DNA from: an uncultured Spirochaetota bacterium
GTDB taxonomy: Bacteria; Spirochaetota; UBA4802; UBA5550
Assembly (NCBI GenBank): GCA_963827275.1
Contig: CAWHAA010000007.1
Span: 192,001-256,000 of the forward strand
Reading direction: 5' to 3'
DNA length: 64,000 nucleotides
The notes beneath the pieces were generated by a model that was given only the letters and a program-made list of their open reading frames with translations, was not told where the DNA came from and searched no databases. Positions 4,441 to 12,882 of the stretch are shown here, in pieces; the first letter of the stretch is position 1, and every line of letters begins with the position of its first letter. The position numbers were made by a program, and so were the translations under genes.

Positions 4441-4657
4441 CCCTTATCGGATACGCACCGGCATATTTGGCAACAATTTTTTTTCAACCCGAACAGACGT
4501 TTTGGCGATACTCGATGCGATCGTGTCGCGTGCTTATTGTTATTTTCGCAATTTAATATTTGACACCTGCGGGAGGATGTATCATACTCTGCACCCTGTT
4601 GTCAGCGAGGGCGCATCCCGACCGTCTTCTATCCAGTATGAATGCGAGGTGTTGTCA

Positions 4658-5380
4658 ATGATTGGAAAATATTTCAAGGATTTCGACAAGAAAATTCTCA
4701 AGATAAAAAAGCCCGTTGCCGGCGCCCAGGAGGGGAAGGGAAAAACCGTCACGCGCGCTTCGGTGGACCTGCGCATGATGAAGGAGAGCCTCTCGAAAAT
4801 CGTTCCCTCCCGCCTGAAAGTTGATTCCGTCAAACCGATTGACTCTTCTGGCTTTTCGCCCGAAGGGGTGGACCTTGTGGTCTATGAAGAGTATTGCCAG
4901 GATATGCTGGAGCTGATGGGAGGACATGTGCCGTCCGAGCTCCTGTACGGGATGTTCCACATCGTGCCGAACCTTACCAAAGAATCATTGACCGAGGTAT
5001 TGAACAAGGTCGCGACAGCGAAAAAACTGAACATGTACGCCGCATTACCCGAGGAAGAAGGGACGATGTCGCATATCCCGTCCTTTATTATCGCTGCTTC
5101 CTCCAAGTACCAGTTCAGCGAGCTCAAAAACGATATAATCAATTACTACCTTTCGAAAAATACCGGGTACCGTCATGAACTAGACATCCTCATGATCATG
5201 CACAAGGGGATCGTGGTGAAGAACTGGCGCGAGAAGCGGAGTTTTATCGCTCTTGAGACGAAAGAAGACACCTTTATGTGGTTTTTCATCCTCATGAACG
5301 AGTATCTTGACCAGAAAAAGGAGACGGCGATCGATTTCCGGAATTATGTCAAGAAAGATGTCATTTATAATGAATATTAG
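4658..5380 (+). CDS. Hypothetical protein resembling DUF6602 / PD-(D/E)XK fold
   Basis: GAGGT RBS before ATG 4658. Pattern VPSRLKV...IDSSG.S...DLVVYE...VPSE..YG....PNLTKESL resembles DUF6602, but no ExK is present. Confidence 0.55.
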   Translation: MIGKYFKDFDKKILKIKKPVAGAQEGKGKTVTRASVDLRMMKESLSKIVPSRLKVDSVKPIDSSGFSPEGVDLVVYEEYCQDMLELMGGHVPSELLYGMFHIVPNLTKESLTEVLNKVATAKKLNMYAALPEEEGTMSHIPSFIIAASSKYQFSELKNDIINYYLSKNTGYRHELDILMIMHKGIVVKNWREKRSFIALETKEDTFMWFFILMNEYLDQKKETAIDFRNYVKKDVIYNEY

Positions 5381-5483: not shown

Positions 5484-5639
5484 TATTTAGCGACTCCGCA
5501 ATTATATTGTTGTTTGTTTCAATGACATATCTTTATTATAGATAAAAATGATAATCCCCTAACAAGAGATCCATTGTGGGGCGGGGATAGTGGAGTTATG
5601 GAAGTACCCGGAAATACAAAGAGGAGAACTATTTTGGGA

Positions 5640-6728
5640 ATGAAATCTTTAAAGGCGCTACTACCATTGCTAACGGTTTTGATGGCTGTCCAGTTAACAC
5701 TGGTGCCGAACGGTCTCATGGCAAAACAGAGCAAGGATATCATTCTGGTCCTTGACACTTCCATGAGCATGATCGGGCAGGACGGCGGACAGGACATCCT
5801 TGACAGGGTTAAAAAAAGCATCAGCGATTACATCGACCGTGTAGAGGACGGAGACCGCGTGACCTTCGTTACCTTTGATACCAGCGTAAGGATGTATCCC
5901 GGCGTGTTTGTCGATGACGACAATGACCGGGACATCCTGAAAAAATATATCTCCATGACCGAGGCCACCGGACTGTGGACCTATACCTACAAGATGGTAA
6001 CCACCGTGCTGGATTCGGCCGAAAAGCTTGACAATAAAGATAATCGGCAGACCGAGATCGTCATCATGACCGATGCGATCGATGACCCGCCTCCGGGTGA
6101 CAAGAAATTCAACTTTGCTGATTTTGCCGCCAAATACGGAAAAAAATCGAACATGTGGATTTATATCCTCAGCTTCAGCGATCTCGCCAAGAGCGAGGCA
6201 GCGAAGAAGATGGAGCGGGACCTCGGGCTGATCTCTGACAACGTGAAGATCATCCAGACCGGCGAACCGGAAAAGGCGAAGGAAGAGCTGCTCGCGGAGG
6301 AAAAGATACAGGAGGCGAAGGGGAGGAGCATTCTCTGCCCGATAATTATCGCTGCCGCCATAATACTGCTCCTTCTCGCGCTCCTTTTCTTCGTCAAGCG
6401 GTTGCAGGACCTGAAAGTCTCGGGAAAATTCGAGTACTGGAACAATGAGATCATTGAGCCGTATATGCAGCATTTTGACCTGGCCCGCAGGCCCGCCCGT
6501 GAGATCAATGTGGGCAAGGGGCTCGGGTGCCTGCTGAACATACGGGACATAGACATAAAGAGGCCCATCACCATTAAGGCGGTACGGCATGAAGGCGCGG
6601 TACGGATGGCGATTATCGACAATGACAGCGCCAGGGCCGAGATCGTGAATCGCGAGCCGGACGGCCTCCTCCAGGATGGCGATGTGTTTAAACTGGGGAA
6701 TTATACCTTTAAATACTTTGCGTCCTGA
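5640..6728 (+). CDS. Exported vWA-domain protein with TM helix and C-terminal FHA-like domain
   Basis: Signal peptide MKSLKALLPLL...; MIDAS DIILVLDTSMSM...T...IVIMTD; TM IIIAAAIILLLLALLFFV; C-terminus LLQDGDVFKLGNYTFKY is typical of FHA ends. Confidence 0.8.
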   Translation: MKSLKALLPLLTVLMAVQLTLVPNGLMAKQSKDIILVLDTSMSMIGQDGGQDILDRVKKSISDYIDRVEDGDRVTFVTFDTSVRMYPGVFVDDDNDRDILKKYISMTEATGLWTYTYKMVTTVLDSAEKLDNKDNRQTEIVIMTDAIDDPPPGDKKFNFADFAAKYGKKSNMWIYILSFSDLAKSEAAKKMERDLGLISDNVKIIQTGEPEKAKEELLAEEKIQEAKGRSILCPIIIAAAIILLLLALLFFVKRLQDLKVSGKFEYWNNEIIEPYMQHFDLARRPAREINVGKGLGCLLNIRDIDIKRPITIKAVRHEGAVRMAIIDNDSARAEIVNREPDGLLQDGDVFKLGNYTFKYFAS

Positions 6729-7029: not shown

Positions 7030-8988
7030 ATGGCTTTCACACAATTTCCTAAGAGTCCAAACAAGTTTCACCCGACCATTCCCAATGCCGTCGGTTCACA
7101 TGAATCATACGCGCAGGAAGGGCGTGACAAGATCGCCGAGCAGCGGCTCATCGTCAATGAAACCACGGATCGGGTCATAAACCAGGTCATATCCAAGATG
7201 CCAGAGGACGTTCTGGTCAAAATGGAAATCATGGGCGGTTTGAAGGAAAAGCTGTATAACTATATCAACCAGACCTACGTTAACATGTTCAACCGCTACA
7301 CGGTTACCATGGAAGACGAGTTCATGAAAAAGGTCAGGGACTTCGTTGACAAGGAAGAGCTCAGGGGCCTCGCCCGCTATACCCCGAGGGAGATAATCGA
7401 GCTCATGGACAAGATCGCCGGCCCGGACAAGTTCCACACTGGTGAAATCGAGAAATCGATCATCAACATGTATGGACACCTTCAGGGCCACATACAGCGG
7501 GGCGTCAACGACCTCGAAACAGAGACGAACTCGATCCTCCGCCAGAAGACTGACATCGGCGCTTTCGTCCGGGGCCAGAACGCATACGCCATATTAAAGT
7601 GCGTCTTCAAGGACAATGAATATCGTCCTAAATATGTATACGACGTCAAGCTTTCAATAAATATACTCGAGAGCGAGCTCATCAGCCCGATGTACCACTA
7701 CCAGGTGACCGTTGAGAATTTACTCAAAGACGCGATCCAGAAGCACGTACAGGACCTGATTGACCGCCAGGTGCAGGCCTTCAACGACGAGCTCGTCGAC
7801 CAGGGCAAGCGCGAGCTTACCGGAAGCGAAAAGCTGTTCGAGAAGATCAAGCGGATCGAAAACTTCACCGACGACGAGAAAGAGGACGAAAAATCGAAAC
7901 GCTACACCATCCTCGCCAAGAAGTTCCTGGACAAGATCGAGGGCCTCAGGGCCGAGATCGATGTCGAGGATTTCGATCCCCTCAATATCAGGGAAAATAT
8001 CAAGTACGTCATCGACGAAGAGAACGTGCGGAACCGGGGCTACAATACCGCGATCAACAACATCACCTCGATTCTCGACACCAGCAAGCTCGGCTACCAG
8101 GTGTGCAACAACATGAAAAACGCCAGGATATGCCATATCAGGGAATATGAAGAGACCGATACCTCCATCCTTCCGGATGAGCGGTATTCGATGAGGCTGG
8201 CGTTCTATGACCAGAACCAGCTCAAGGTCGAGAAAAAGGAATTCGACAAGCAAATGGACACCTTCTCCACCGAAATCAAGATGCTCTGGGATGTGTGCCA
8301 TGGCTACTACGAATCAAAGAAGCGTTTCCGCGCACTGAAGGACTTCGATGACCTGGCCAACAGGATCATGGCGAAAGACTGGAAACGCGCCAAGAAGGAG
8401 CGTGAAGAAGATCCTGAAACCATCCTCTGGAATGAAGTTGGCGAGATGTATCCGGAAGATTCGTTCGTAGAAAAGAACAACAGGACCTATGAACACCGGA
8501 TCGTAAATCTCAAGAACAAGCTGATCTATCTGAAAGATATGCTCCACAAGATGCATGGATTCCAGAACCCGGTGGAACGGGTCATCCTGGACGAGCGCAT
8601 CAGCTTTATGACCAAGCGGTTCAACGAGTTCACCTACAGGGTAAACCCGCACCATATTCAGCCGGGCCTGATCCTCGACATCGACATCGCAACGATCAAG
8701 AGGAAACAGTACATGCTGAAGGGCATGGCCAACGTTCTGAACGAATTCCTCTATGGCGTATCCAAGGGGTTCTCGGACGCAGCGTTCGCCCAGTACACGA
8801 GGCGCCGGTCGACCCAGAGGGAGGATATCGATCAGTCGTTTGCGGCCGAGGAAGTGGGCGCGAGCGTTATCGAAGAAGCCTACAGGGTTTCACAGCAAAG
8901 CCCCGGCAGCGAGATCAGCGGCGCTGTCAGCCTTTCGCCAAGGAGCGCGGCCAAGCCGGTGAAGAAATCCGGCCTGAAGGAACTGTAG
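7030..8988 (+). CDS. cfpA: Cytoplasmic filament protein A (spirochaete coiled-coil filament protein)
   Basis: Strong AAAGGAGG RBS. PKSPNKFHP..P.AVGS, MGGLKEKLYNY, NMYGHLQGHIQRGVNDLET and DVKLSINILESELISP match treponemal CfpA as recalled. Confidence 0.92.
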   Translation: MAFTQFPKSPNKFHPTIPNAVGSHESYAQEGRDKIAEQRLIVNETTDRVINQVISKMPEDVLVKMEIMGGLKEKLYNYINQTYVNMFNRYTVTMEDEFMKKVRDFVDKEELRGLARYTPREIIELMDKIAGPDKFHTGEIEKSIINMYGHLQGHIQRGVNDLETETNSILRQKTDIGAFVRGQNAYAILKCVFKDNEYRPKYVYDVKLSINILESELISPMYHYQVTVENLLKDAIQKHVQDLIDRQVQAFNDELVDQGKRELTGSEKLFEKIKRIENFTDDEKEDEKSKRYTILAKKFLDKIEGLRAEIDVEDFDPLNIRENIKYVIDEENVRNRGYNTAINNITSILDTSKLGYQVCNNMKNARICHIREYEETDTSILPDERYSMRLAFYDQNQLKVEKKEFDKQMDTFSTEIKMLWDVCHGYYESKKRFRALKDFDDLANRIMAKDWKRAKKEREEDPETILWNEVGEMYPEDSFVEKNNRTYEHRIVNLKNKLIYLKDMLHKMHGFQNPVERVILDERISFMTKRFNEFTYRVNPHHIQPGLILDIDIATIKRKQYMLKGMANVLNEFLYGVSKGFSDAAFAQYTRRRSTQREDIDQSFAAEEVGASVIEEAYRVSQQSPGSEISGAVSLSPRSAAKPVKKSGLKEL

Positions 8989-9031
8989 GAGAATACGGCG
9001 CAGCAGGCCGATTCAACAACAATGAAATGAG

Positions 9032-9065
9032 GAGGCTGGCCCCGAGGGACCAGCCTCTTTTTTTT
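9032..9065 (+). terminator. Rho-independent terminator after cfpA
   Basis: GAGGCTGG...CCAGCCTC stem followed by T8. Confidence 0.85.
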
Positions 9066-9156
9066 CGGAGATGCCTCGTGCTTTCTCGCGATAGCTCTTT
9101 TCCCGGCTCGACGCTTGTTCGCGGCGGTTTTATTGATTTTTATCGTTACAAAATGC

Positions 9157-9184
9157 TTGCAATTATTGTAGCGGCTTTTATAGT
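9157..9184 (+). promoter_or_regulatory. Putative sigma70 promoter for the HPr-like/PPDK-like pair
   Basis: TTGCAA (9157) - 16 nt - TATAGT (9179). Confidence 0.45.
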
Positions 9185-9326
9185 ATCAACCATGATCGGG
9201 GATGCTACAACCTTAAACGTGCAGTTTCATGGCCAGGTAAGAACACGGTCCCGGCTATAATTATAAATCATGCGCAACCCGGTTCGCGCATTTCCCCCCA
9301 ATAAACTCTGTCAAGGGAGCACTATA

Positions 9327-10235
9327 ATGGAAAGCACTTATCTGACTCTGGCTTCCAAATCAAATTTCAACAAGGCGCTCAGGCACTTTTACATGGTGAG
9401 CGGCGTCGTTGAGGAAGTCGAGATGAACAAGAACCTGGCCGATGTCATCAACGACGGGCTGGACGAAAATGAAATTCACGAAGACCAGATACTGCCGATC
9501 GTGGGGGCTGTTATCCGCGACAAGTACGCGTTCAGCTATGATTCCTACAATATCGTCGAGCCGGTCACGGAATTCCAGAGGATCGTTGACGAAACCGGCA
9601 AGTGGTCGGCCATCGACATCGTGTGCGTCTACTACAACCCCGGCGGCAAGGTGTGCCTCGTCAACCCGAAAAATATCGACCACTGGGAGCGCGTGCACGA
9701 ACTTCACCCCGACCAGCTCATGGTGATATACGCCAAGTACCTGAAGGAAGACAATAAAAAGATCGAGAATGCCGCGATCAGCACCCTCGAGGAGATGATT
9801 GCCGGAAAGGACGTGTTCATCAACAAGGCGTTCATCGACCAGACCGTGATCCAGCGCAAGGTCGTGAAAAAAGAGAAAAAGGTAGAAGACCAGGGAAAGG
9901 GGGCGGCAAACATCACCCCGAAATACGCCGTGGAAGTGTCAAACGAGCTTTTCCACAACGGCAACGTAGAGGCATGGAAGAAGATAATGGAAAGCTTCAT
10001 GACCACGTATCCCGACCTGAAGGTGTACATCTACCACGGCGGCGAACTGGTCAATGATATAAACTCCCTGTTCAAATGGGGGAAGGTAAAGCACGGCGAT
10101 TCCATATTTTTCCAGGTGGCCGGCGATAATATCAGGGGCGTTTCGAAGCTCCAGAAGTATTTCTACGAAGGTGCCAGCCCGCGCTTCGAGCAATTCCTCA
10201 AGATCGAGGTCGGCCAGGTGCTCAGGCTGTTCTAA
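9327..10235 (+). CDS. Conserved hypothetical protein with C-terminal HPr-like domain
   Basis: AAGGGAG RBS before ATG 9327. The C-terminal ~95 aa (YAVEVSNELFHNGNVEAWKKIMESF...KVYIYHGGELVNDINSLFKWGKVKHGDSIFFQVAGDN) follow the HPr pattern. Confidence 0.7.
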   Translation: MESTYLTLASKSNFNKALRHFYMVSGVVEEVEMNKNLADVINDGLDENEIHEDQILPIVGAVIRDKYAFSYDSYNIVEPVTEFQRIVDETGKWSAIDIVCVYYNPGGKVCLVNPKNIDHWERVHELHPDQLMVIYAKYLKEDNKKIENAAISTLEEMIAGKDVFINKAFIDQTVIQRKVVKKEKKVEDQGKGAANITPKYAVEVSNELFHNGNVEAWKKIMESFMTTYPDLKVYIYHGGELVNDINSLFKWGKVKHGDSIFFQVAGDNIRGVSKLQKYFYEGASPRFEQFLKIEVGQVLRLF

Positions 10236-10272: not shown

Positions 10273-12882
10273 ATGGAAAATATAGTGTATTTTAATAAAA
10301 ACCTCAAGGAAGTGGACCCGAAGGTGCGGCAGCGGCTCGGCATTCGCGGGGGGAGGGCGGTCGACCTTGCCATGATGGGCCTGCCCATCGCGCCAGGCTT
10401 TATCATCGATTCACTTCTCACGCAGAAGCTGCCCCAGGTAAATTTAAAAGAGATACTGAGCACGCATATCGGCCAGCTCGAGAAAGACACAAAGAAGAAA
10501 TACGGGGACACGGAAAAGCCGCTCATGCTGAAAGTGGTGCTCAGCTCGGATCTGAACGTTCCCCACTTCCCGTCGATACACAACATCGGGATGAATGCCC
10601 AGACCGTGGAGGCGTTCGGTAAGTACACGGGGCGGGAATTCGCGTACGGCGAATACCTGTTCCTGATGAGGAACCTCGCGAAGAATATCTTCGAGGTGGA
10701 TACCACCGAGGTCAAAAAGATCGAGGCGAAGCTTGCCAGAAAAAGTGACGTCGAAGAGGTCAAGGCCGCCATCGAGGCATACCAGAAGCTGTTCGGTGAA
10801 AAATTCAGCGAAGACGTGTACGACCAGCTCAGCCTGATCATGAAGGCCGCATCGTCGCGGTACTGTGATTCGCCCATCGACGTGGACAATTCCCTGTCGA
10901 TCATGGTGCAGGTGATGGTGTACGGGACCTGGGGCAAGAATTCCTACGCGGGAAATTATTATACGAGGAACATCGTAACCGGCGACCCGGAAATACAGGG
11001 CGAATTCGGGCAGGGCGAGTTTGACATCCAGGCGGGAAAAGCCAGGGACATCTCCAAAATCGAGAAGAAGCACTATGACCATTTCACCGAGATCGCACGG
11101 AAGGTGGAGGACAACTTCAAGGAGATACGCGAGATAAAATTCACCATTGAAGAGAGCGATTTCTGGCTCGTCGAGCAGAAGGAGGTTGACGAGAAGTCGA
11201 CCCAGTCGCAGATAAAGGCACTGCTCGACCTGACGAGGAGAAAGATCGTCACCGATACCTATACAATAGCGAAGATAAAGCCGAACCAGCTCAATGAGCT
11301 CCTCCACCCGGTCATCGATCCCCGGACGATCAAGGGAATAAAGAGCATAAAGGGAGGGATTGCCGGCTCCACCGGCGCCGCCATCGGACGGGTGTTCTTT
11401 TCGACGCCGAAGCTCCTCGAGGAGCACAAGCGCGCGATCATGAAGGGCGGTGACCCGAAGCTCATACTGGTCATGCCCGCGTCGTTCGCCGAGGACGTGA
11501 AGGCCATCGAGGTGGCGCAGGGCGTTATCACGTGCGAGGGGGGGTTCTCGTCCCACGCGCCGGTCGTCGCCCGGAGCCTCGGCAAGGTCGCCATGGTGCA
11601 GCCGGAGATGAAGATCAAGGGCGACAGCTTCACGCTCGCCGGAAAGACCGTCCGAGAGGGCGACTACGTGTCGATCAATGTCCCCTACTACGAGGCCCCC
11701 ACCATCTTCATGGGAGAGGTCGGCCTTATCGAACCGGATTGGAAGAAGAACGGGCTCTTCGAGTTCCTTGACTTGGTGGAAAAGCATATCGGCGATTTCA
11801 ACGTGCGCGCCAACGCCGACCAGGGCAGGGACGCACTCGTCGCGAAGGACTTCAAGGCGAAGGGGATCGGACTCTGCCGGACCGAGCACATGTTCTTCAA
11901 CGAAAAGCGGATCATGAAATTCCGCGAAATGATTATCGCCGGCACTGAAGAGGAGCGGCGCAAGGTGCTGAAGGCGCTCCTCCCGATGCAGCGGTCCGAT
12001 TTTTACGACCTGTTCAAGATCATGGAGGGAAACCCGGTGACCATTCGCCTGCTCGACGCGCCGCTCCATGAATTCCTGCCCAGGACAGACGAGAGCATGA
12101 ATATATTCGTCCGGTACATGCAGGCAAAGGAACCCAAACTCAAAGCGCAGGATATCATCGCGCGTTGCGAGGAGCTGGGCGAGATGAATCCCATGCTGGG
12201 CCACCGGGGCTGCCGCGTGGCGGTGACCTACCCGGAGATTTACGAGATGCAGTGCAGGGCCATATTCGAGGCCGCCTGCATGTTGCGGAAAGAAGGCCAC
12301 AAGATAAAGCCGGAGATAATGATCCCGATCGTCATGAGCAAGGAGGAGATCAAGTTCATAAAGAACGGGAAGAAGATAGAGGGCAAGGAGGTAAAGGGTA
12401 TCCGGGACATCAAGAACGAGGTGGTCGAGGATTACGGCATCGAGGATCTCGACTACGAGGTGGGGACCATGATAGAGCTCCCGGCCGCTGCCCTCGGGGC
12501 CGGCGAGATCGCCCAGTATGCCGAATTCTTCAGCTTCGGCACCAATGACCTGACGCAGACGACCTACGGGCTGTCGCGGGACGACTCGAACTCGTTTTTC
12601 CCGAGCTATTCGCTCTTTGACCTCATGAAGTCGAACCTGTTCAAGTACCTTGGCGACGAGGTGAAGGAGCTGATCGGAATCGCGTCTTTGCGGGGAAGGC
12701 TGTCGCGGCCCGATATAAAGATGGGGCTGTGCGGGGAGCACGGCGCCAGTCCGGAAAATATTCAGTTCTGCATGGAGGCGGGGCTCAATTACGTGTCCTG
12801 CTCGCCGTACGCGATACCGCTGGCCAAGCTGGGGATCGCGCAGATCAATATAAAGAACACCCAGAAGCAGGGAGCGGCATAG
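10273..12882 (+). CDS. ppdK: Pyruvate phosphate dikinase-like protein with degenerate N-terminal ATP-binding domain
   Basis: GGFSSHAPVVAR phospho-His motif; GIGLCRTEHMFF, TIRLLD, NPMLGHRGCR, GTMIE, FSFGTNDLTQ and GLCGEHG are intact. N-domain signatures GGKG, VRSG and LQTR are replaced. Confidence 0.9.
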   Translation: MENIVYFNKNLKEVDPKVRQRLGIRGGRAVDLAMMGLPIAPGFIIDSLLTQKLPQVNLKEILSTHIGQLEKDTKKKYGDTEKPLMLKVVLSSDLNVPHFPSIHNIGMNAQTVEAFGKYTGREFAYGEYLFLMRNLAKNIFEVDTTEVKKIEAKLARKSDVEEVKAAIEAYQKLFGEKFSEDVYDQLSLIMKAASSRYCDSPIDVDNSLSIMVQVMVYGTWGKNSYAGNYYTRNIVTGDPEIQGEFGQGEFDIQAGKARDISKIEKKHYDHFTEIARKVEDNFKEIREIKFTIEESDFWLVEQKEVDEKSTQSQIKALLDLTRRKIVTDTYTIAKIKPNQLNELLHPVIDPRTIKGIKSIKGGIAGSTGAAIGRVFFSTPKLLEEHKRAIMKGGDPKLILVMPASFAEDVKAIEVAQGVITCEGGFSSHAPVVARSLGKVAMVQPEMKIKGDSFTLAGKTVREGDYVSINVPYYEAPTIFMGEVGLIEPDWKKNGLFEFLDLVEKHIGDFNVRANADQGRDALVAKDFKAKGIGLCRTEHMFFNEKRIMKFREMIIAGTEEERRKVLKALLPMQRSDFYDLFKIMEGNPVTIRLLDAPLHEFLPRTDESMNIFVRYMQAKEPKLKAQDIIARCEELGEMNPMLGHRGCRVAVTYPEIYEMQCRAIFEAACMLRKEGHKIKPEIMIPIVMSKEEIKFIKNGKKIEGKEVKGIRDIKNEVVEDYGIEDLDYEVGTMIELPAAALGAGEIAQYAEFFSFGTNDLTQTTYGLSRDDSNSFFPSYSLFDLMKSNLFKYLGDEVKELIGIASLRGRLSRPDIKMGLCGEHGASPENIQFCMEAGLNYVSCSPYAIPLAKLGIAQINIKNTQKQGAA

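Follow-up and report, generated by a model that had tools for sequence, protein, structure and literature searches.

The cytoplasmic filament gene cfpA of an uncultured Spirochaetota bacterium is followed by a gene for a protein of 302 amino acids and by a paralog of pyruvate, phosphate dikinase (PPDK), an arrangement that raises the question of what the middle protein does and whether its neighbors take part in it. The first-pass annotation of the window, the whole stretch of 64,000 nucleotides that was analyzed, had claimed a cryptic HPr-like domain in the C-terminal segment of this protein. The answer favored here, with a probability of about 0.65, is an Enzyme I-like relay, linked to the CfpA filament, in which phosphate would pass from PEP to His428 of the PPDK paralog (the partner) and on to His210 of the 302-amino acid protein. 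The fold, the conservation of the histidine, the residue pattern of the partner, synteny and co-occurrence, all seen in sequences or models, form the basis of this reading. The features of the locus are collected in Table 1. An AAGGGAG ribosome site lies 5′ of the ATG at 9327, and close homologs have the same start methionine; the ATG at 9270 was discarded as the start on the sequence and on the start methionine of these homologs.

Table 1. Features of the cfpA locus, in positions of the window.
Feature	Position	Strand	Basis or remark
vWA-domain membrane protein gene	5574..6728	+	Conserved upstream of cfpA
cfpA, cytoplasmic filament protein	7030..8988	+	NF040882, 877 bits (cut-off 500)
Hairpin and T-run after cfpA	9029..9066	+	-23.5 kcal/mol, z -3.5; 0/200 shuffles as stable
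Sigma-70-like site, weak	9157..9184	+	9/12 matches; upstream of the gene pair
TP_0747-family gene	9327..10235	+	302 aa; two HPr folds joined by a linker, after a helical N-terminus
N-terminal helical segment, residues 1-66	9327..9524	+	DSSP of the model; outside the span of the fold matches
HPr-fold domain 1, residues 69-162	9531..9812	+	VIA-align; without a conserved His at the His15-equivalent position
Flexible linker	9813..9911	+	Low pLDDT at 188-191; length varies
HPr-fold domain 2, residues 196-285	9912..10181	+	Model, Foldseek, VIA-align
His210 codon (CAC), predicted to accept phosphate as HPr His15 does	9954..9956	+	Sequence, model, VIA-align
PPDK paralog, 869 aa, predicted phosphoryl donor	10273..12882	+	TIGR01828, 681 bits; residue pattern; tree
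His428 codon, equivalent to PPDK phospho-His455	11554..11556	+	His in 112/112 linked-clade proteins

The HPr likeness of the C-terminal domain was borne out by an AF2 model, by Foldseek and by VIA-align. The model of residues 194-302 has a pLDDT of 95.3 and a pTM of 0.89, and that of the whole protein, built on 126 sequences, has a pLDDT of 91.8. In the Foldseek search, a check that the annotation had proposed, the top 13 rows were all HPr or Crh, with a probability of up to 0.99 and a best E of 0.014. VIA-align, which re-aligned Foldseek's own top 1000, placed HPr and Crh in the top 28 rows (best Z 8.0, rmsd 2.0 Å, 78/85 residues), and the first row of another kind had a Z of 5.9. The alignment joins positions 3-92 of the domain to 1-85 of HPr, and these end-to-end ranges, rather than a residue-level superposition, put His210 at HPr His15 or at most one residue from it. 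Helix 1 of the model starts at residue 211, directly after His210, whose context reads VSNELFHNGNVEAWK. Against the HPr reading counts that the Foldseek E is non-significant and that a Z of 8.0 is at a level that, according to the tool, may reflect a common arrangement; the identity to HPr in the structural alignments is 9-18%.

Standard HPr profiles had been predicted to miss the domain, and they did. PF00381 had no match to the protein at E up to 1, was absent among the 25 of 41 families listed for 97 C-domain members, and in a search of the window's own genome matched the canonical HPr only. The C-domain profile scored 15.5 against 21 HPrs, less than the maximum reached in 40 column shuffles (16.5). 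No family is assigned to the C-domain in Pfam, NCBIfam or the Atlas, and PDB sequence searches gave nothing significant; rows for NusA in the PDB search (E 0.3) were discarded as weak. As modeled, the C-domain resembles HPr in fold but falls outside PF00381. Arg17 and Pro18 are part of the HPr active site, and their positions, called G/N in the annotation, are indeed occupied by G212 and N213; the linker and downstream segments quoted there are likewise present. In place of the G-[LIV]-H-x-R-P signature, which includes Arg17 and Pro18, the domain reads L-F-H-N-G-N. The Ser46 equivalent appears to be D244, in a register taken from a weak profile alignment, and this column holds 94 Asp and 4 Asn in 98 rows; Asp at HPr position 46 impairs recognition by Enzyme I.

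The remaining N-terminal region of about 200 amino acids, a candidate effector in the annotation, had been described as unassigned, which did not stand: it carries PF27497 (TP_0747_N) and a second HPr fold. Structure prediction, which the annotation had suggested for this region, showed the HPr fold at residues 69-162 (VIA-align Z 9.3, rmsd 1.8 Å, 79 residues), and both domains independently ranked HPr first. The predicted models of both domains (Z 8.0 for the C-domain, 9.3 for the N-domain) have the beta-alpha-beta-beta-alpha-beta-alpha open-faced beta sandwich. With HPr, the N-domain profile reached 18.6, more than any of 40 shuffles (maximum 15.2), and the comparison of the N-domain and C-domain profiles was not above shuffles. 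Domain 1 has no conserved histidine at the His15 position, with at most three histidines in any of columns 76-89. No fold match was obtained for residues 1-66, which are a candidate docking part. The linker between the two folds measures 20-161 amino acids across homologs, and a conserved tail of 17 amino acids follows the second fold up to residue 302.

The N-cap position of the histidine and its conservation, both named in the annotation as points to check, hold in the model and in the homolog alignments. His210 is kept in 121/126 rows of one alignment (A2), for which sequences that were full-length or bore the C-domain were picked from 120 and 150 listed matches, with near matches thinned. 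In a second alignment (A3) it is present in 98/98 rows, a figure biased by 63 rows that came from a pattern scan partly using the His210 motif; the A3 rows chosen by HMM without the motif have it in 34/34. From a search of 401 genomes, five further loci were read, and all of these keep His210. One of the five His-less homologs was tied to DNA (L202). The C-domain is the best-conserved part of the protein, at 0.69-0.77 vs 0.45-0.59 for the N-region.

A homology search with the 302-amino acid protein found 3210 relatives, and PF27497 is present on 120/120 among the matches listed. The protein shares 32% identity with TP_0747 of Treponema pallidum; at locus L116, its ortholog and the neighbor of that ortholog have the same sequences as T. 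pallidum TP_0747 and PPDK_TREPA, respectively. Many of the short matches to the family lie on short contigs or are labeled partial, and stand-alone forms are thus not established. No significant fusion of the C-domain was found among 49 candidates in proteins of 530-2000 amino acids, which is weak evidence. In one genome (G280, L126 4032-4957) the TP_0747 ortholog is split by a frameshift between the N-region and the C-domain, and another genome of the same genus (G381) has it whole. Some homologs are labeled as an unclassified bacterium or as Deltaproteobacteria, and an 841-amino acid protein from a mussel assembly also bears the N-region and probably represents bacterial contamination (P0254, P0320 and P0238 for these entries).

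The partner aligns to PPDK over its whole length, and its score with TIGR01417 (108 bits, cut-off 342) sets it apart from Enzyme I; with TIGR01828 it stays below the equivalog cut-off for PPDK (681 vs 843 bits). A quick tree of 41 rows placed its clade on one side of a branch with a support of 100 and a stem of 1.07 changes per column. Residues were numbered and compared against the Clostridium symbiosum PPDK (1dik). His455, R561, R617, E745, N768, D769 and C831 are kept in 112/112 clade members. At the other end of the molecule, all 111 members that have the N-domain replaced R92 by Val or Ile and E323 by Lys, Arg or Met; K22 is invariantly Arg, and D321 remains in 9 of them. R92, D321, E323, Q335 and R337 are, we assume, functional positions of the ATP-grasp domain. 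G101 and D104 are lost as well and T453 is Ser or Ala. The partner in the window has K22R, R92V, D321E and E323K, with no Q-x-R. Canonical spirochete PPDKs, a set of 20 fetched regions from which two without a matching ORF were dropped, keep every ATP-grasp residue compared, R92 and E323 included, in 18/18.

The ATP-grasp domain of the partner has not simply been released, since 25 of its positions are invariant in the clade, which indicates that it is still under selection. The register at Q335/R337 is ambiguous between alignments, and the invariant Q302 may be Q335; this point and the conservative nature of the change of K22 to an invariant Arg count against the relay. The available part of PMC4844700 supports the role of K22 and, for the related enzyme RPH, reports that Arg117Ala blocks product formation and that the Mg-binding mutant Glu297Ala remained active; the latter weakens the argument from E323. 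In the swivel domain of the partner, conserved changes that are specific to the clade and two short insertions possibly form a new docking face. The genome of the window also has a canonical-type PPDK, PtsI, HPr and HPrK. The canonical-type PPDK gene is split by a frameshift in the assembly (G000:C2 near 20.78 kb, L084), through an assembly error or as a pseudogene.

The three genes travel together. The partner lies directly downstream of the TP_0747-family gene in 78/80 loci and in 36/40 of a second set, the remaining 4/40 genomes carrying it elsewhere, and cfpA precedes the TP_0747-family gene in 72/80 loci. Among 301 spirochete genomes, the TP_0747-family gene was found in 110, the partner N-domain in 109 (scored at 267 bits or more, other PPDKs reaching at most 190) and cfpA in 111; 108 have all three genes and 189 have none, counts that come from kin and are not independent draws. 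The sole mismatch, G295, codes for a 586-amino acid partner in which the ATP-grasp domain is deleted and the His and the PEP site are intact (L125 2597-4354, minus strand); its cfpA is located elsewhere in the genome and is divergent (43%). At L202 (2830-8381), cfpA, an HPr-fold gene in which His210 is Gln, and the partner are full length and in the conserved order. The L202 partner has His455 changed to Tyr and has lost R561, N768/D769 and C831, and its cfpA is divergent (41%). In contrast, the partners at L203 and L204, as divergent as that of L202 or more (30-38% vs 41%), retain both histidines, with further decay of the N-domain. The joint loss of the histidines was seen at one locus and the ATP-grasp deletion in one genome. 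Since the L202 genes are full length without either His, a non-catalytic role of the three-gene system also exists.

In the window, the hairpin and T-run after cfpA is likely an intrinsic terminator between cfpA and the gene pair, which counts against a relay coupled to the filament; it was absent from the output of a terminator scan. Sigma-70-like sites were not above chance (6 found vs 4.4 expected). Upstream of cfpA, the vWA-domain gene and an uncharacterized gene with a weak DUF6602 match (4502-5380) are candidates for filament anchoring. At L079 and L080 a gene that by eye resembles the latter replaces the partner after cfpA and the HPr-fold gene. In family f38 (L147, L151, L153, L154, L176-L180) the three genes are on separate contigs, all kept, with both histidines intact, and one genome (G005, contigs C97, C69 and C102) has three copies of cfpA.

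We consider it likely that the tandem-HPr protein serves a PTS-like relay driven by PEP as its dedicated phosphocarrier and that the neighboring PPDK paralog is the donor. PEP would phosphorylate His428 of the partner, as in PPDK and Enzyme I, and the swivel domain would hand the phosphate to His210 rather than to the ATP-grasp site. The phosphorylation state could then report the PEP:pyruvate ratio, and the His-less HPr fold with the N-terminal helices might couple it to CfpA filaments or to their anchor; these two steps are the weakest. The relay is favored by the HPr fold, the His position and the near-universal His210, by the partner keeping the PEP site and swivel His and losing ATP-site residues, by the deletion in G295 and the joint loss in L202 vs the retention in L203 and L204, by the separate canonical-type PPDK, PtsI, HPr and HPrK, and by VadK, a precedent of a PPDK turned histidine kinase. 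Against it count the C-domain without sequence-level HPr homology, the G/N at R17/P18, and the full-length L202 genes without either His.

Other readings of the same observations were weighed. HPr folds can serve as binding modules, as in Crh or in the complexes of HPr with Rsd or with glycogen phosphorylase, and the pair could be a scaffold or allosteric device in which such modules tether the pseudo-PPDK to the filament and His210 is an interface residue that the partner does not phosphorylate. The near-invariance of the entire motif around His210, and not of the His alone, would fit, as would one of the two folds being His-less, the missing R17/P18, and L202, where the genes stay full length after losing both histidines. 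Nonetheless, this explanation, which we regard as unlikely, accounts neither for the PEP site and His kept in 112/112 partners despite the ATP-site losses nor for the joint loss of the histidines in L202 vs their retention in L203 and L204. Less probable still is that the partner has remained an active dikinase, its nucleotide or pyrophosphate site rewired, under regulation by the tandem-HPr protein. The invariant Arg25, Lys87, Arg286 and Gln302 of the N-domain could bind phosphates, RPH Glu297Ala is active (PMC4844700, in the part available), and T. pallidum genome G088 has no pyruvate kinase match, PMC10013896 assuming in its accessible text that TP0746 makes ATP from PEP. However, R92 is Val and E323 is Lys or Arg across the clade, G295 has lost the N-domain and L203/L204 show it further decayed, at least three PEP-utilizer genes are present in 40/42 carriers examined, a canonical-type PPDK is encoded in the genome of the window, and G088 has a bypass in PEP carboxykinase and the alpha subunit of oxaloacetate decarboxylase.

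The donor to His210 might instead be the canonical Enzyme I, with the pseudo-PPDK acting on another acceptor or draining the phosphate of His210 to pyruvate. The genome of the window encodes PtsI, and HPr is present in 42/42 carriers tested, but the TP_0747-family gene tracks the pseudo-PPDK and not the PTS genes, and the Asp or Asn that appears at the Ser46 equivalent, in the weak-profile register, would, as Asp46 does in HPr, harm recognition by Enzyme I; we find this arrangement quite doubtful. That the likeness to HPr arose by convergence on an alpha/beta sandwich, with the His position a coincidence, seems highly improbable. The identity of 9-18%, the non-significant Foldseek E and the Z of 5.9 reached by unrelated sandwiches leave room for it; it is countered by the independent first rank of HPr with both domains, the end-to-end register that brings His210 to His15 or within one residue of it, and the N-domain profile score of 18.6 vs a maximum of 15.2 in shuffles (n=40).

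Compared with HPr, Crh and NPr (PtsH, PF00381), the tandem-HPr protein has the same predicted fold in both domains and, in the C-domain, a His that caps the start of helix 1. It differs in having no PF00381 match, LFHNGN instead of GxHxRP, and apparently Asp/Asn at the Ser46 position, in its tandem layout with added N-terminal helices, linker and C-terminal tail, and in the placement of its gene with cfpA and the PPDK paralog rather than with PTS genes. The predicted transfer from PEP to a swivel His and to an HPr-fold His is common to Enzyme I with HPr and to EI-Ntr/NPr, but the donor here is PPDK-derived (TIGR01828 681 vs TIGR01417 108 bits) and presumably lacks the helical HPr-binding domain of Enzyme I; no EII gene was found among the neighbors examined. 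With PPDK (TIGR01828; C. symbiosum 1dik) the partner shares the three-domain layout, His455 and the PEP-site residues, and it differs in the loss of R92, E323, G101, D104 and mostly D321, in Ser/Ala at T453, and in its separate clade. VadK (Rv1127c) of Mycobacterium tuberculosis is likewise a PPDK turned regulatory histidine kinase, according to the accessible portion of PMC13400623; it keeps the ATP domain and the swivel His and autophosphorylates from ATP, whereas the spirochete clade keeps the PEP half. The system is likely an undescribed PTS-like phosphate relay with VadK as its closest precedent (PMC13400623, as available) and, if so, Enzyme I chemistry would have evolved by a second route as well, and VadK would have its mirror on the PEP side. 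It also offers concrete candidate regulators for the spirochete cytoplasmic filament.

The reading bears on T. pallidum. Genome G088 (L116; C1:810-817 kb) encodes proteins identical to TP_0747 and TP0746, and TP0746 has the degenerate ATP site. Profile searches of this genome gave no pyruvate kinase match, no PPDK_N match, and two PEP-utilizer matches, the TP0746 gene and one other that is taken to be PtsI; a GTP-type PEP carboxykinase and OadA are present. TP0746 is described, in the parts of the papers available, as most likely forming pyruvate and ATP from PEP, AMP and PPi (PMC10013896) and as highly expressed (PMC8525777). The residue pattern of its ATP site argues against this reading, and, judged from sequence, ATP is probably not a product of this annotated dikinase, which calls into question a step of T. 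pallidum glycolysis for which TP0746 is read in print as an ATP-making dikinase (PMC10013896 and PMC8525777, in their accessible text). A wider proposal, which we offer tentatively and at somewhat less than even odds, is that the entry step of the PTS was re-invented: a duplicated PPDK turned into a PEP:protein kinase, a private tandem-HPr relay couples PEP status to the assembly, anchoring or positioning of CfpA, and T. pallidum, without a working PPDK or pyruvate kinase, would rely on PEP carboxykinase and the sodium-pumping oxaloacetate decarboxylase for its pyruvate.

The literature searched, mostly open-access articles, held no description of the TP_0747/pseudo-PPDK pair, and proteome-wide modeling tables of T. 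pallidum might list the fold. The accessible parts of PMC8100219 and PMC2405797 contain nothing on the cfpA-TP_0747 locus, and TDE0843 appeared in the searched literature in an expression table only. The orthologous cfpA loci of Treponema are TP0748-TP0747-TP0746 and TDE0842-0844; the sources label TP_0747 and its ortholog 'uncharacterized protein' and the partner either 'putative PEP-binding protein' or 'pyruvate, phosphate dikinase', and none of them mentions a relay or the HPr fold. In T. denticola, TDE0842-0844 are repressed together, as stated in the available text of PMC3914990.
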